A stretch of 19,153 nucleotides of DNA from Arcobacteraceae bacterium (GTDB lineage Bacteria; Campylobacterota; Campylobacteria; Campylobacterales; Arcobacteraceae), in contig JBLWVX010000039.1 in the NCBI GenBank assembly GCA_048268245.1, positions 1 to 19,153 on the forward strand, written 5' to 3'. The position numbers were made by a program, and so were the translations under genes. Positions 2,085 through 6,616 of this stretch are shown piece by piece. Below the pieces are notes generated by a model, which ran no database searches, was not told the origin of the DNA, and was given only the letters and a program-made list of their open reading frames with translations. Position 1 is the first letter of the stretch, and every line of letters begins with the position of its first letter.

Positions 2085-2906
2085 ATGCAAAATATTTTAA
2101 TCACAGGATGTTCCACAGGTATTGGACTACAAACAGCAAAAACACTTAAAGACAATGGTTATAAAGTCTATGCAAGTGCAAGAGATATAGAAGATGTTAA
2201 CTCATTAAAAGCTTTAGGCTTTGAGGCACTTAAGATTGATGTTACAAAAAAAGAGGAAATTTCACAAGCTTTGAAATATATTTTAAACAAAGATGAAAAA
2301 CTGGACGCTGTTTTCAACAACGCAGGTTATGGACAACCAGGAGCAGTTGAAGATATAAGTGTAGAAGCCCTAAAAGAACAGTTTGAAACAAACTTCTTTG
2401 GTCTTCATGAAGTTACACTTCAAGCTATGAAGATTTTTAGAGCTCAAGGCTATGGAAAAGTTATACAACACTCTTCTGTTTTAGGAATAATCTCACTTAA
2501 ATTTAGAGGTGCTTACAATGCTTCAAAATACGCTATTGAAGGTTTAGCTGATACTATGAGACAAGAGCTTATGGGAACTAATATTTTTATATCATCAATA
2601 AATACAGGACCAGTTACTTCAAAATTTAGAAAAAATGCCTTAAAAAAATTCAATAAAAATATAGATATAGAAAATAGTTTTTTTAAAGATACCTATAAAA
2701 AAGAGGTAAAAACTAGACTAGAAAATGAAAAAGATACTACACCTTTTAATCTTCCAGCAACATCAGTAGCAAATGTGATTTTAGAAATCATGAAATCAAA
2801 CAATCCAAAACCAAGATATTATGTAACAAAAGCTACATATATCTTAGGTTTCTTCAAAAGAGTTTTATCTACAAGACTTTTAGATAAACTTCTAAATAGA
2901 ATATAA
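2085..2906 (+). CDS. Short-chain dehydrogenase/reductase (YbbO-like SDR)
   Basis: TGCSTGIG, NNAG and YNASK (YxxxK) motifs; RBS AGGA. Confidence 0.93.
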   Translation: MQNILITGCSTGIGLQTAKTLKDNGYKVYASARDIEDVNSLKALGFEALKIDVTKKEEISQALKYILNKDEKLDAVFNNAGYGQPGAVEDISVEALKEQFETNFFGLHEVTLQAMKIFRAQGYGKVIQHSSVLGIISLKFRGAYNASKYAIEGLADTMRQELMGTNIFISSINTGPVTSKFRKNALKKFNKNIDIENSFFKDTYKKEVKTRLENEKDTTPFNLPATSVANVILEIMKSNNPKPRYYVTKATYILGFFKRVLSTRLLDKLLNRI

Positions 2907-2934
2907 AGAGAAAGTTTTAAACCTTCTCTTTATA
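2902..2934. terminator. Probable bidirectional terminator hairpin between the SDR and Thg1-like genes
   Basis: TATAAAGAGAA (2902-2912) pairs with TTCTCTTTATA (2924-2934); the hairpin overlaps both stop codons. Confidence 0.65.
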
Positions 2935-3681
2935 AATATTTTTTACAACTTTTGAAAACTCATCAATTGTTTGAAAAGTATATTTATCTAATTTATCAGA
3001 ATCTGTAGGAATATATAAAGTTGCTAAACTAAATATTTTTTCAACATCATTTAATAAGTTTAATTCTTTTATTTTCAAACAATAGTAATCTATGTTATTG
3101 TAATTTAATTCACTATATAACTCATCATCACAAACACCTTTAATTCTCAATAATTTAGATATTGAATTTCGAATAAAAATCGCATACCTATATATCAAGT
3201 AATTAGATACTTGTTCCAATGAATTTAATATAATCGGACGACCATCAAAAGCACCTTTAATCTTATTATCTTTATTTATTGATTGAGAACCTGACATAGT
3301 AAAAAAAGAACTAAAAGTTGATGCTAATGTAGTGACAGTTTTAAATGTCCTTCTTTCATATTGTTTTTCATTAGGGTTTAAAACTATAGAAACTTCATCT
3401 GAACAAATAATGAAACCTAAAAAAATATTCTTTTCAATATTATCTTTGAAATTCTTATACAATACACCATACGTTGAATATAAAGATTGAATCATTAGAT
3501 TATTAAATCTTTTATTACTCATACTATTTTTTAGATATTTTTTGCTTAAACCTATTCCATCAAGTCTAACACATAAATATTTATCTTCATTATATTTAGA
3601 TATTACCTCAGACTCTTTTTCAATTTCTTTAAAAGACAAGTCTAATTCACAATATTTTTTTAACATTTGTTTATTTAACAT
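2917..3681 (-). CDS. Divergent Thg1-like protein (tRNA(His) guanylyltransferase family / 3'-5' polymerase)
   Basis: Thg1 motifs in the expected order: VRLDG (R39, D41), SDEVS (D95, E96), RRTFK (K114), FDGR (R148) and YLIYR...RN (N172). Confidence 0.85.
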   Translation of the reverse strand: MLNKQMLKKYCELDLSFKEIEKESEVISKYNEDKYLCVRLDGIGLSKKYLKNSMSNKRFNNLMIQSLYSTYGVLYKNFKDNIEKNIFLGFIICSDEVSIVLNPNEKQYERRTFKTVTTLASTFSSFFTMSGSQSINKDNKIKGAFDGRPIILNSLEQVSNYLIYRYAIFIRNSISKLLRIKGVCDDELYSELNYNNIDYYCLKIKELNLLNDVEKIFSLATLYIPTDSDKLDKYTFQTIDEFSKVVKNIYKEKV

Positions 3682-3818
3682 TATTTACCTTTTGAACCTT
3701 TATTATTTGGATTCATTTGAGCACCTCTATTTCCATGAACTTTTGCATTTGCATTATTTGTTCCACTTGTACCTTTATTTGAATTAGCTTGATTTGCTTT
3801 ATGATTATTATTTGCCAT
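3681..3818 (-). CDS. 45-aa Asn/Gly/Lys-rich small protein, not in the ORF track: MANNNHKANQANSNKGTSGTNNANAKVHGNRGAQMNPNNKGSKGK
   Basis: ATG at 3818 with a strong RBS AAGGAG just upstream; its TAA overlaps the Thg1-like ATG (TAATG at 3683-3679); codons end almost entirely in A/T. Confidence 0.85.
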   Translation of the reverse strand: MANNNHKANQANSNKGTSGTNNANAKVHGNRGAQMNPNNKGSKGK

Positions 3819-3891
3819 AATAAACTCCTTTTAAATTTTCTGATAATATAATTTAATATTTAATCAGTAATGTAAGTATTACAAAGAACAA

Positions 3892-3913
3892 GGGGACAAA
3901 ATTGGGGACAAAA
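3892..3913 (+). repeat. Tandem direct repeat GGGGACAAAA x2 (12-bp period), candidate operator
   Basis: Copies at 3892-3901 and 3904-3913, flanking the TTG start at 3902; G-rich against a very AT-rich background. Confidence 0.7.
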
Positions 3914-4222
3914 GTTGGTAGTAATAAAAATTTTAGAAAATTATGGGAAATCTTTTATAAAGAAATTCAAACAAACAAAAAATTTACCCCTAAAACATTA
4001 CATGGATTTAGTAAATATTACATTGAAGGAAATCCTCATATCGAGACAACAGCAAAAAATTTAAAAAGAAAACTTGAAAGATGGAAAGAAAGAATAGAAA
4101 CAAATAACAACTTTCAAAATAATACATATCTTGAGCTTGAAGAATACTATAAGTTTATAAAAAGTTCATATTTTAAACATGAATTATTAGAAGATGAAGA
4201 TATCGAACACTGGTTCGATTAA
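3902..4222 (+). CDS. Hypothetical 106-aa protein, possibly a DNA-binding regulator
   Basis: TTG start after AAGGGG; TATAAT at 3848-3853; basic, probably helical core (KNLKRKLERWKER) and acidic tail. No family recognised with certainty. Confidence 0.65.
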   Translation: MGTKVGSNKNFRKLWEIFYKEIQTNKKFTPKTLHGFSKYYIEGNPHIETTAKNLKRKLERWKERIETNNNFQNNTYLELEEYYKFIKSSYFKHELLEDEDIEHWFD

Positions 4223-4710
4223 TCTTCTTTTGATGAACATTTTTTATATTTTTTTTCTAATTCATCTTCAACCCATGCTTTATCTTTTGAAAGGGTCTTT
4301 GTAATAAAAGAACTCATCTTTTTTACCACACAAAAACAATTATCCCTAACTTCATCAGTAGAACCAAATTTATCAATACATTTTTTCATCATTTTGTATT
4401 CAGTTTCAAGCTTAGTTCTAGCAATAACTGCGTATGTTAACACAGCTGTTCCTGATACATATAAAACCTCACTTGAAACTAACTCTTTATCTTCTAATAC
4501 TGCTCCAGCAGACACTCCTGCCATTAAACTTCCCAAAATTACAATTCCATTTGATTTATATTTAACCATAGAGCCATTTATTGGCTTTTTACAATTTTTA
4601 CATTTAATTGTTTGAGAAAGATTAATTGTATTTTCTTCTTCACAATGGTGACATTCTACTATTAAAGCTGAATCATCATTTTTTGTTAATAGTTTTTCGT
4701 TGTTTGACAT
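4219..4710 (-). CDS. Hypothetical zinc-ribbon membrane protein with a Cys-rich C-terminal domain
   Basis: CHHC...CKNC pair, hydrophobic segments GIVILGSLMAGVSAGAVL and VLYVSGTAVLTYAVIA, four C-terminal Cys (C, CFC, C). Confidence 0.75.
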   Translation of the reverse strand: MSNNEKLLTKNDDSALIVECHHCEEENTINLSQTIKCKNCKKPINGSMVKYKSNGIVILGSLMAGVSAGAVLEDKELVSSEVLYVSGTAVLTYAVIARTKLETEYKMMKKCIDKFGSTDEVRDNCFCVVKKMSSFITKTLSKDKAWVEDELEKKYKKCSSKED

Positions 4711-4787
4711 AGTACTCTTTTAAATAATATTTTAATAAGGTATTATATATTAAAAATTTAAAAATTATATAAAATATGTAAGGATAT

Positions 4788-4817
4788 AAAAAGAAGGAAT
4801 TAAATTCCTTTCTTTTT
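4788..4817. terminator. Intrinsic terminator after the NhaC-family gene
   Basis: AAAAAGAAGGAAT-TAA-ATTCCTTTCTTTTT hairpin with A/T tails on both sides, directly at the stop codon. Confidence 0.75.
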
Positions 4818-6522
4818 ATTTTGTTATGTAAGCTTTCCCATAAAATCTGATTACTAAGAATACTACAAGTAATCCAATTGGTAATAAGAAGTATACAGGT
4901 ACTCCAAATGCAGCTGGGATATATCCACAAACAATAGCAACAGCCCCTACAAACAATGCATAAGGTAATTGCGTAGCGATGTGATCCATGTGGTTACAAG
5001 ATGAAGCCATTGATGATAAGATAGATGTATCAGAAATAGGCGAACAATGATCCCCAAAAATAGCACCTGTTAATACAGCCCCTACATTTAGGACAATATA
5101 ACTATGAAGTTCATTCCCTTCTAAACCTGTATGAATTCCTACAGCACTTGCTAAAGGAATTGTTAAAGGCATTAAAATTCCCATTGTTCCATAAGATGTT
5201 CCTGTTGAGAAAGAGATGATAGAACCAAGTATAAAAATCACAGTTGGTAAAATAAACTGAGGTGTACTATCTGATAAAAGTGTTACAAGATATTGAGCAG
5301 TTCCTAGCTCTTTCATCACAGAAGATAAAGACCAAGCAAGGATTAAAATCACAGCCGTAATAACTAAAGCTTTAACTCCATAAACCCAAGTCTCAATAGC
5401 TTCATGTAATGAGAAAATCTTTTGTTGTAAACCCATACCAATAGCAACAAGAGAAGCTAATAATGCAGCTTCAAAGATTACAATAGAAGCATCAGCAGCA
5501 CCAAAAGCTTCTCTAATTGCTTCAAAAGAGTAAGGAGCAGCTTCTACAATCTTTAAAGCTTCACCTTCAAGTCCTGAAACACCATTTACATAAAATCCTA
5601 CAATAGAAACTATAATAAGTACAAAAATAGGAATAATTGCATTAAAAATAGAATAAGTAACATCTTCTTTAGGCATCATAAATGAGTTTTCTTGATTCAT
5701 TAAAGTACTATCTGTTTTAGGGTTTGTTAATTCACCTTTTTCATATGCTCTTTTTGAAGCTTCATACATAGGTCCAAAATCTCTAAGTGTGAAAGCTGTA
5801 AAGAAAACAAAGGCAAGCATTAGGATATTATAAAATCTATAAGGAAGTGTTTCTACAAAAACAGCAAAAGCATTTACCTCTGGCTGTCCAATAGCAACAT
5901 AGGCATCTTTAATAAGTGATAGCTCATATCCAACCCAAGTAGAGATAAGTGCAAGTCCTGCAATAGGTGCAGCTGTTGAGTCAATAATAAATGCTAATTT
6001 TTCTCTAGCAACTTTTAGTTTATCTGTTACAGGTCTCATAATAGGCCCAACAACTAATGAGTTTGCATAATCATCAAAGAAGATAAAAAATCCCATTACC
6101 CATGTATAAAGTTGTGCAGTTGCAGGAGTTTTAGCTTTTGAAGCAAGCTTAATAGCAATAGCTCTAGGCCCTCCCATTTTTGTAATAACAGCAATCATAC
6201 CACCAATTGTTAGAACTTGAAGAACAATACCTGCATTCCATGAGTCTGCAAGGGAACCAACCATTTTTGATGACATATCAACTAAAGCATTAAAAAAAGT
6301 TGCGAAGATATTCGCACCTGTGATATTTACCATAAAAGTTCCGGTAAATATACCCATAAATAAAGAAAAGATTACATTTCTTGTTACAAATGCTAATACA
6401 ATAGCAACTAATGGAGGAAGTAAGGTTAAAGCTCCAAAGGTAACAGAATTATCTTTTGTATCTGCTAGTAAGGCTATAGGAAGAATAGCTACTAGTATAA
6501 AAGTTTTTAAAAAACTAGTCAA
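4816..6522 (-). CDS. Na+/H+ antiporter NhaC family protein
   Basis: FFDDYAN, REKLAFIIDSTAAP, FSTGTSYGTMGI and GAIFGDHCSPISDT motifs. Start moved to TTG 6522 because AAAGGA precedes it and TATAAT lies at 6559-6554. Confidence 0.9.
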   Translation of the reverse strand: MTSFLKTFILVAILPIALLADTKDNSVTFGALTLLPPLVAIVLAFVTRNVIFSLFMGIFTGTFMVNITGANIFATFFNALVDMSSKMVGSLADSWNAGIVLQVLTIGGMIAVITKMGGPRAIAIKLASKAKTPATAQLYTWVMGFFIFFDDYANSLVVGPIMRPVTDKLKVAREKLAFIIDSTAAPIAGLALISTWVGYELSLIKDAYVAIGQPEVNAFAVFVETLPYRFYNILMLAFVFFTAFTLRDFGPMYEASKRAYEKGELTNPKTDSTLMNQENSFMMPKEDVTYSIFNAIIPIFVLIIVSIVGFYVNGVSGLEGEALKIVEAAPYSFEAIREAFGAADASIVIFEAALLASLVAIGMGLQQKIFSLHEAIETWVYGVKALVITAVILILAWSLSSVMKELGTAQYLVTLLSDSTPQFILPTVIFILGSIISFSTGTSYGTMGILMPLTIPLASAVGIHTGLEGNELHSYIVLNVGAVLTGAIFGDHCSPISDTSILSSMASSCNHMDHIATQLPYALFVGAVAIVCGYIPAAFGVPVYFLLPIGLLVVFLVIRFYGKAYITK

Positions 6523-6616
6523 AATAATCCTTTTATAAAAAATCAAAGCAATTATTATACTCTTAAATTTCTTTAAAGTTACAAAATAGTTAGAATAAAT
6601 TAGTTTTTTATAGTCT

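Follow-up and report, generated by a model that had tools for sequence, protein, structure and literature searches.

Our analysis of a stretch of 19,153 nt from an Arcobacteraceae bacterium (contig JBLWVX010000039.1 of assembly GCA_048268245.1; this whole stretch is called the window below, and the genome it comes from is G000) revealed an islet of four small genes between an SDR gene and an NhaC gene. The islet encodes a Thg1-like 3′-5′ nucleotidyltransferase, a basic peptide of 45 amino acids (aa) whose gene directly precedes it, a divergently transcribed 106-aa protein, and a 163-aa zinc-ribbon membrane protein whose gene is convergent to that of the 106-aa protein. As judged from the sequences compared, these four genes are a real, recurring and linked module, in which the peptide and the two small partner proteins are the fixed core and the Thg1-like gene is the variable, exchangeable piece. 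We give about an even chance to the reading that the islet is a conflict-type cassette, either toxin-antitoxin-like or anti-phage, in which an RNA-directed effector that can be exchanged is encoded in an operon headed by the peptide. Directly observed are the order of the genes, how they are coupled and conserved, the swaps at the 3′ end of the peptide gene, the linkage of Thg1-like genes to the peptide and, as an impression from the loci scanned, the defence-type company of the peptide family. Compared genomes carry G numbers and compared loci L numbers, and the family set comprised 184 genomes.

A profile search with the 163-aa protein matched 13 genomes of the family set, nine of them strongly, and the 163-aa/106-aa pair accompanies the peptide in nine genomes. 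The order, with the 163-aa gene converging on the 106-aa gene and the latter diverging from the peptide gene and whatever follows it, is the same in 7/7 additional strong-match genomes and in G002. Of nine genomes, eight retain the 4-nt overlap between the convergent stops of the 106-aa gene and the 163-aa gene. Compared with the window, the seven additional genomes share 35–39% identity in the 163-aa protein, 44–54% in the 106-aa protein and 72–93% in the peptide. G144 and G181 contain all four gene types, arranged as in the window, and their Thg1-like proteins are 28–29% identical to that of the window. A HicA gene lies behind the peptide gene in G189, G063 and G074, and nothing is adjacent to it in G185 and G069. 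The module occupies two contexts. In G189, G063 and G074 it adjoins the orthologous SDR gene, near the same permease-RsmD-RNase Y gene run as in the window, and this adjacency to the orthologous SDR extends over three genera. In G144, G181 and G185 it follows a DUF2779 gene, amid genes for an SMC-like ATPase, MazF and ORF6N.

The peptide gene itself was found in 22 of the 184 family genomes, representing 10 of 22 genera. Directly behind it stand HicA in ten genomes, a Thg1-like protein in six, an NYN protein in one, and another gene or nothing in five. The HicA assignment is above the Pfam cut-off in 10/10 cases. No adjacent open reading frame (ORF) that could be HicB was found beside HicA in these relatives, and a Pfam search found neither HicA nor HicB in the window. 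The Thg1-like gene follows the peptide gene without any 106-aa or 163-aa gene in G140, G086 and G071, and the 163-aa protein co-occurs alike with HicA, with NYN or with no cargo.

Several close pairs locate the point of exchange. G002 carries the 163-aa, 106-aa and 45-aa genes with 94%, 92% and 100% identity to those of the window, and in the Thg1 position it has instead a protein of 223 aa with an NYN domain (97 bits in Pfam, beside a weak OST-HTH match). In BLASTN of G000 against G002, the homology of 94–96% ends exactly at the SDR stop (2906) and at the peptide stop (3681). L056, which has HicA, and L058, which has a Thg1-like gene, share the upstream gene and the peptide and are 91% identical up to the peptide 3′ end, where they part. 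L040 (Thg1-like) and L041 (no cargo) are likewise 92% identical up to the peptide 3′ end.

The initial annotation, which was made from the letters of the window alone, had proposed a linked islet built around the Thg1-like gene and acquired horizontally. Linkage is upheld by G144 and G181, in which the four gene types recur together with this arrangement, a check that the initial annotation had itself set. The central place given to Thg1 is not, as this gene is swapped for NYN in G002 and for HicA in ten family genomes, or is absent. The synteny comparison proposed for the SDR-NhaC interval showed that the block is not a conserved core in all relatives, with clean empty sites in G001 and G003. 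Horizontal acquisition is supported only in part, given the position beside the orthologous SDR in three genera and a GC content that is no more than mildly low.

Two of the five same-genus genomes, G001 and G003, have an empty site, in which the SDR-NhaC gap measures 22–24 bp and contains a single hairpin. The hairpin of the empty site (AAAGAAGAG..CTCTTCTTT; L017, L018) is similar to both hairpins that flank the islet (2902–2934 and 4785–4818). This likeness suggests an insertion in or next to the shared terminator, after which either edge retained a hairpin. G004 has an unrelated 467-aa ORF (L016:910-2313) in the same site, for which neither Pfam nor PADLOC gave a match; this marks the SDR 3′ end as a variable hot spot. 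In G005, NhaC is absent.

The peptide is the most conserved part of the module. It contains 13 Asn, 6 Lys and 6 Gly, no Asp or Glu, and hardly any hydrophobic residues, has a charge of +7, and is probably disordered. In nine family genomes it is 72–100% identical, against 35–54% for the neighbouring proteins, and it has an invariant core, QxNxNKGTSGTN. Among these nine family copies, the pN/pS ratio was 0.06–0.34 in 35 of 36 pairs, substitutions being mostly synonymous; the remaining pair (G000/G002) has zero amino-acid changes. An AAGGAG ribosome-binding site before the peptide gene is also conserved. This synonymous bias and the conserved site indicate that the peptide is likely translated and selected as a protein. 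No family assignment was obtained from Pfam, NCBIfam, PADLOC or PHROGs, and the ESM Atlas returned unnamed clusters only.

The features of the islet and its flanks are listed in the table, with the small acidic ORFs found at other peptide loci.

Table. Positions of the islet genes, junction elements and flanking genes in the window, and of acidic ORFs at compared loci.
Feature	Position	Strand	Remark
SDR gene, left flank	2085-2906	+	Pfam adh_short, 135 bits
Hairpin, left islet edge	2902..2934	both strands	overlaps the SDR stop codon and the Thg1-like 3′ end; terminator-like
Thg1-like 3′-5′ nucleotidyltransferase, 254 aa, exchangeable cargo	2917..3681	-	PF04446, catalytic motifs
Basic peptide, 45 aa	3681..3818	-	most conserved element; stop overlaps the Thg1-like start
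Divergent spacer, 83 bp, between peptide operon and 106-aa gene	3819..3901		presumed promoters and ribosome-binding sites
106-aa protein, four-helix domain and disordered acidic tail	3902..4222	+	TTG start after AAGGGG
Hairpin over the last 106-aa codons and the TTAA overlap with the 163-aa gene	4196..4227		terminator-like
163-aa membrane protein, zinc ribbon, hydrophobic segment and Cys domain	4219..4710	-	invariant Cys
Hairpin, right islet edge, behind the NhaC stop codon	4785..4818	both strands	fold compared with shuffles
NhaC gene, right flank	4816-6546	-	Pfam Na_H_antiporter, 179 bits
Acidic Trp-containing ORFs	L068, L092, L096 after the peptide; L143:1889-2011; L153:1107-1244; L137:1831-1974; L152:1977-2144		

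The four ORFs, their strands and the three junctions between them had been read correctly in the initial annotation. The peptide stop and the Thg1-like start share one base at 3681 (TAATG), and the convergent stops of the 106-aa and 163-aa ORFs overlap in TTAA at 4219–4222. Also correct was the claim that each flanking gene ends in its own hairpin, the folds of both being better than those of shuffled sequences (z from −3.8 to −4.8). For the left hairpin, the folding energy is −11.7 kcal/mol (z −3.8) on one strand and −15.6 kcal/mol (z −4.8) on the other; for the right one, the values are −12.0 kcal/mol (z −4.35) and −13.9 kcal/mol (z −3.9). The third hairpin, at 4196–4227 (−13.5 kcal/mol, z −3.9), could serve as terminator of both convergent transcripts. 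The 83-bp spacer is unstructured as RNA (z 0.15). The module had been thought to be self-regulated, a claim that found no backing in the spacer, where inverted repeats are no better than in shuffles. As an operator, these repeats (CTGAT..ATCAG and others) were dropped, the best arms being equalled by 9–65% of shuffles. At 3893–3914, a direct repeat, GGGGACAAAA, extends across the ribosome-binding site and the 106-aa gene start; several homologues have a doubled MGTKMGTK at the N-terminus. The hand counts of GC made earlier (12/60, 9/60 and 21/60) were exact, but the AT-richness read from them proved mild: the islet has a GC content of 0.241 and the genome a mean of 0.279, and among 5172 windows of 1.9 kb, 7.6% do not exceed the islet. 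The GC content of the Thg1-like gene is 0.221.

The assignment of the cargo gene of the window to the Thg1 family was confirmed by Pfam (PF04446, 53.1 bits over residues 22–151, cut-off 29.2) and by profile matches to PHROGs (phrog_4717, 2.2e-13) and to PDB chains. A profile of its clade matched the solved Thg1 and Thg1-like protein (TLP) chains 5xox, 3wbz, 5axk, 4kgk and 3otb at 2.4e-12 to 2e-9, and the RLDG, SDE and FDxR motifs of the clade align to their counterparts in these chains. The metal-binding carboxylates of the palm, D41, D95 and E96, fall on RIDG and SDE in 5xox and 3wbz. In a 34-sequence alignment of the clade, R39, D41, G42, D95, E96, F145 and R165 are invariant. No Pfam match to Thg1C (PF14413) was obtained at E≤0.1; the clade profile aligns with 3wbz as far as profile position 243, and Y161, R165, R171, K176, L178 and R179 are conserved. 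An exhaustive HMMER search of 1.84 billion representatives gave 93 clusters at E≤1e-3, with a best identity of 47%. The protein is thus a genuine and probably active superfamily member in a sparse and divergent clade.

A search with the Thg1-like protein of the window found nothing in 60 relatives, which indicates that it is not a housekeeping enzyme. The clade profile gave six strong hits and a marginal one (5.6e-4 over 52 columns) in the family set. A housekeeping tRNA-His guanylyltransferase, required where G-1 is not encoded in the tRNA-His gene, would be conserved in relatives, and a Thg1-like gene is present in only 6 or 7 of the 184 genomes. ARAGORN found 41 tRNA genes in the 57-contig assembly of G000 and none for His, Ala, Ile or Trp; from these gaps, the tRNA set appears partly unassembled.

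All six strong hits (6/6) directly follow the 45-aa peptide. In a maximum-likelihood tree, the window enzyme and metagenomic sequences form one clade, and the enzymes of G144/G181 and G140/G086/G071 form a separate one, both with 100/100 support. Both of these deeply separated clades are peptide-linked, and the linkage therefore spans the depth of the family. A metagenome scan with a 9-row alignment as query returned 4 loci, three of which hold full-length relatives. In one of these, L131, a different 41-aa peptide (..DNYSRQLDPEHDAYWQSRGG..) overlaps the Thg1-like start; no small overlapping peptide was found at the other two. An ORF of about 434 aa without Pfam match is convergent to the metagenomic Thg1-like genes nearest to that of the window (L130:1646-2953(-), L131:1235-2536(-)) and may be a further partner of the window-type clade. 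A tblastn search of phage records with the Thg1-like protein gave no match.

The layer formed by the 106-aa and 163-aa proteins was seen only in this bacterial family. The 106-aa protein has seven database homologues and seven more in family genomes. Its AlphaFold2 (AF2) model (pLDDT 76.7) has helices at 3–24, 33–43, 51–66 and 73–88, followed by a tail with pLDDT below 50. The tail ends in ...EDEDIEHWFD; the pattern ELLxDExxEHWFD is nearly invariant across cargoes, with L95, L96, D98, E99, W104 and F105 invariant. A tail that is constant whatever the cargo should have an equally constant partner, for example the peptide, the 163-aa protein or some host factor. Foldseek found nothing in the PDB at E≤0.001 with this model. 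A POU-specific/XRE helix-turn-helix (HTH) fold or a HEPN-like fold was considered and rejected, as the Z scores of 6.1–7.6 are in the noise range for helical proteins, and the HEPN Rx4-6H motif is not conserved in the family alignment. An ACP_PD identity was also rejected (20.8 bits, below the cut-off of 27).

The 163-aa protein has nine database homologues. The earlier description of a zinc-ribbon/transmembrane protein is borne out by invariant CxxC...CxxC cysteines and a hydrophobic segment. C20, C23, C37 and C40 (CxxC-x13-CxxC) make up the zinc ribbon, and C111, C125, C127 and C158, also invariant, lie in the C-terminal domain. Distant homologues have one hydrophobic segment, and the relative in G032 consists only of a signal or transmembrane segment and the Cys domain. 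The single segment and this architecture suggest a topology with the zinc ribbon on the cytoplasmic side and the C-terminal domain outside. The AF2 model is poor (pLDDT 52). DmmA and S27e were rejected as identities of the zinc ribbon, the hits being weak and below cut-off. Pfam, NCBIfam and PHROGs gave no family above cut-off for the 163-aa protein and sub-threshold hits only for the 106-aa protein. The membrane protein had also been proposed as sensor or effector; the occurrence of the Thg1-like gene without the 106-aa and 163-aa genes in G140, G086 and G071 argues against a role as Thg1-dependent effector.

Relatives of the peptide were found far beyond the family. A word-indexed protein search gave 54 clusters, with named sources in Pasteurella, Massilia, Agaribacter, Ureaplasma, Psychroserpens, Photobacterium, Phocoenobacter and Shewanella; the labels listed for them are 'hypothetical protein' or, oddly, in some cases 'Alpha-amylase' (UniRef). 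When a single genome per species was scanned, 253 loci proved to encode a peptide relative, in many phyla, with 60–93% amino-acid identity across phyla. Three of 2.9 million viral contigs carry a relative. A tblastn search of plasmids gave no match, perhaps through the low-complexity filter.

The neighbourhoods of the peptide relatives were studied at the best 80 of the 253 loci. A same-strand ORF of at least 40 aa starts between −25 and +250 nt of the peptide gene in 74 of these 80, several of them short and perhaps spurious. Clustering of the partners gave a protein of about 520 aa at 21 loci, one of about 220–250 aa at 16, HicA at four, a Thg1-like protein at three and NYN at one. The ~520-aa partner (e.g. 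L082:5163-6734) occurs in Pseudomonas, Burkholderia, Ralstonia and others; its family was not recognised, and the ESM Atlas gave sub-threshold leads to TPR, HTH_3 and RNPP_C (0.80–0.85). The ~220–250-aa partner (e.g. L107:5206-5892) has a weak N-terminal HTH and occurs in Neisseria, Kingella, Shewanella, Vibrio and others. In Pseudomonadota, no other genes stand directly behind the peptide as often as members of these two families. An hhalign comparison found the ~220-aa family linked neither to the 106-aa family nor to the ~520-aa family.

A prokaryotic viperin gene is present at seven of the 80 loci, directly downstream in Flavobacteriaceae and Aureispira and upstream in three Shewanella loci. 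At the peptide loci, PADLOC recognised pVip-kinase with 976 bits and pVip with about 305 bits. In Shewanella and Neisseria, the gene immediately before that of the peptide matched the HicA-like model associated with viperins; at other loci, upstream genes matched the viperin-associated NERD model and the 'Ankyrin' model (PDLC02908). In Shewanella (L068, L092, L096) the peptide directly follows pVip and the viperin-associated HicA-like gene; in Neisseria and Kingella (L102, L107, L110, L114) it is behind the HicA-like gene, with no pVip. Defence or mobile genes were found in 11 of 13 Pfam-scanned loci, a count that, having no matched random-locus control, is an impression and not a statistic. 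They include restriction-modification, GmrSD, Mrr, BREX, Gabija-like (OLD-TOPRIM and UvrD), reverse-transcriptase and NACHT genes, together with a recombinase, transposase or integrase. Orphan hicA genes beside pVip genes have been described by Gerdes (2024, mBio, PMC10865869), where the regulation of these RNases is posed as a question; a term search of the available text of that paper found 'peptide', 'small protein', 'Thg1' and 'NYN' nowhere.

Some further small ORFs were seen at these loci. In the Shewanella loci, G090 and G135, the peptide or HicA is followed by mini-ORFs that are strongly acidic and rich in Trp (..DLWSDINNPNNDADMDDWAD..), and G032 has a related one on the upstream side. 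L119 shows a fusion of the basic peptide to a similar acidic tail, ..EDEEDIDGDVYW... Two ORFs of 98 aa (L056:5743-6039, L143:2243-2539), a few hundred bases downstream of a peptide-HicA pair, contain a copy of the peptide motif (..NQQNPNKGTPGTNKQYDQNQGNRGKQMNPNQ..) and an extra C-terminal part.

With these data, the conflict cassette can be pictured in two layers. The first would be the peptide-led operon, in which an RNA-directed enzyme is translationally coupled behind the peptide and the slot is filled by a Thg1-like protein, HicA, NYN or nothing; a small ORF overlapping an enzyme gene is, as predicted from sequence, a toxin-antitoxin-like architecture. The second would be the divergent 106-aa helical protein with the convergent 163-aa zinc-ribbon membrane protein. 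The Thg1-like effector would modify or extend the 5′ ends of tRNA or other RNA and so arrest translation, as the RNases in the same slot would stop it by cleavage. The peptide and the 106-aa protein would control the expression or activity of the effector, with the acidic tail as a candidate partner of the peptide; the acidic mini-ORFs and the L119 fusion favour this pairing as hints only. The membrane protein might supply an envelope signal to the control. This specific wiring of effector, control and membrane input is tentative, and we would not expect it to hold in all its parts.

Several observations weigh against a conflict cassette. PADLOC-DB 2.0.0 (2023 library) has no family for any of the four proteins at E≤1. 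The islet has only mildly low GC, and its neighbours in the window genome are the ordinary SDR and NhaC genes, with no defence island. The commonest partners of the peptide in other phyla, the ~520-aa and the ~220-aa HTH-like proteins, are no recognisable toxins. A confident DNA-binding fold was not found in the 106-aa protein, and the inverted repeats of the spacer are at chance level. A classical antitoxin role for the peptide is doubtful, because its sequence is constant whatever the partner, and a peptide of charge +7 is unlikely to neutralise basic RNA-binding enzymes directly. Lastly, the characterised bacterial Thg1-like proteins are described as tRNA 5′-end repair enzymes and not as toxins.

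This repair activity of bacterial TLPs is established, and the Thg1-like protein of the islet could likewise restore tRNA 5′ ends damaged, for example, by a ribotoxin or phage nuclease, the small proteins being regulators or bystanders. Its intact catalytic motifs and its full length, like that of the solved TLPs, would fit, and the available text of a jumbo-phage review (PMC7824862) counts Thg1 among RNA-repair enzymes, a point that also tells against a toxin. However, the same coupled slot holds destructive RNases (HicA in ten genomes, NYN in one), no repair partner such as a ligase or a kinase/phosphatase adjoins it, and the lack of the enzyme in the 60 relatives sampled argues against a housekeeping need; we hold repair to be unlikely. 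A role in nucleotide signalling, in which the palm enzyme makes a (cyclic) nucleotide and the 163-aa protein is the effector, as in Panoptes or GGDEF systems, is very unlikely. The Thg1, GGDEF and Cas10/mCpol palms are related according to the part of PMC12657218 available, and a membrane protein does belong to the islet. Yet the matches are to Thg1/TLP proper over about 130–210 residues and not to minimal polymerases, and the membrane protein goes equally with HicA, NYN or no cargo and is missing beside the Thg1-like gene of G140, G086 and G071.

The 45-aa ORF might also act only as a leader, its translation or stalling setting the downstream expression, with a peptide that has no function as a molecule and a 106-aa/163-aa pair that is unrelated to it. 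The one-base stop/start overlap seen here and in the HicA and Thg1 relatives, the strong conserved ribosome-binding site and the 13 Asn among 45 codons agree with a leader. Its amino acids, in contrast, are conserved across phyla and its pN/pS ratios are low, which is unusual for attenuation leaders; the next gene starts 40–200 nt away in other phyla, and the acidic Trp-rich peptides and the acidic-tail fusion of L119 suggest a protein partner. We regard a mere leader as improbable. Least probable of all, and by our estimate hardly credible, is that the four genes are unrelated passengers at a variable insertion site behind the SDR gene. The site does vary in the genus (empty in G001 and G003, with the 467-aa ORF in G004, without NhaC in G005), but the order and couplings recur in other genera, where the proteins are 35–54% identical, and in a second chromosomal setting, the Thg1-peptide linkage is 6/6, and the low protein identities argue against a single recent block transfer.

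If the conflict cassette is correct, bacterial Thg1-like enzymes would gain a biological setting, as exchangeable effectors beside RNases. A very conserved peptide gene would then accompany viperins, orphan HicA and other defence genes in many phyla, and it would bear on the published question of how orphan RNases are controlled. The sharp breaks at the peptide 3′ end would be a natural joint for cassette exchange, usable to discover effectors. A bolder version, rather doubtful but worth stating, is that the peptide marks an undescribed cross-phylum class of immune or conflict cassettes and licenses pVip, orphan HicA, NYN and Thg1-like proteins, that it is the missing regulator of the viperin-side hicA, and that the Thg1-like protein is a new toxin modifying 5′ ends. 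Small conflict cassettes with exchangeable effectors are a known kind, and there is a substantial chance that the peptide family marks something more distinct.

The initial annotation had known of no described system of this composition; besides the lack of PADLOC matches, no description of such an arrangement was found in open-access papers and bioRxiv preprints, in agreement with this. Comparison with known systems gave partial likenesses. Like Thg1 and the TLPs (4kgk, 5axk; eukaryotic 3otb, 3wbz, 5xox), the window enzyme has the Pfam domain, the RLDG/SDE/FDxR motifs and a length of about 250 aa. Unlike them, it belongs to a sparse separate clade, with PDB matches of 1e-9 to 1e-12 at best and no PF14413 hit at E≤0.1, and in the family all strong Thg1-like hits stand behind the small peptide; no TLP in such an operon was found in the literature searched. 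MenT and AbiEii, nucleotidyltransferases of toxin-antitoxin and abortive-infection systems, arrest growth by adding nucleotides to tRNA ends and are encoded in small two- or three-gene cassettes. Their fold is of the Pol-beta type and they target 3′ ends, whereas a Thg1 palm would act on 5′ ends; the likeness is one of idea, and no homology is claimed.

As in hicAB and the orphan hicA genes beside viperins (classes 9 and 10 in the available text of Gerdes 2024), the slot holds a Pfam-positive HicA in ten family genomes. Unlike in hicAB, no HicB was seen, the upstream partner is the basic 45-aa peptide, and the window carries a Thg1-like protein. With Panoptes (mCpol and a 2TM effector), as outlined in the available portion of its description, the islet shares a palm enzyme of the same superfamily beside a small membrane protein; it differs in having a full Thg1-like protein, and the enzyme and the 163-aa protein occur independently, without obligate co-occurrence. 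The peptide resembles the WYL/BrxR and RptR regulators in that one conserved small gene family stands beside many unrelated defence genes. Those regulators are folded DNA-binding proteins, whereas the element shared here is a low-complexity basic peptide of 45 aa.

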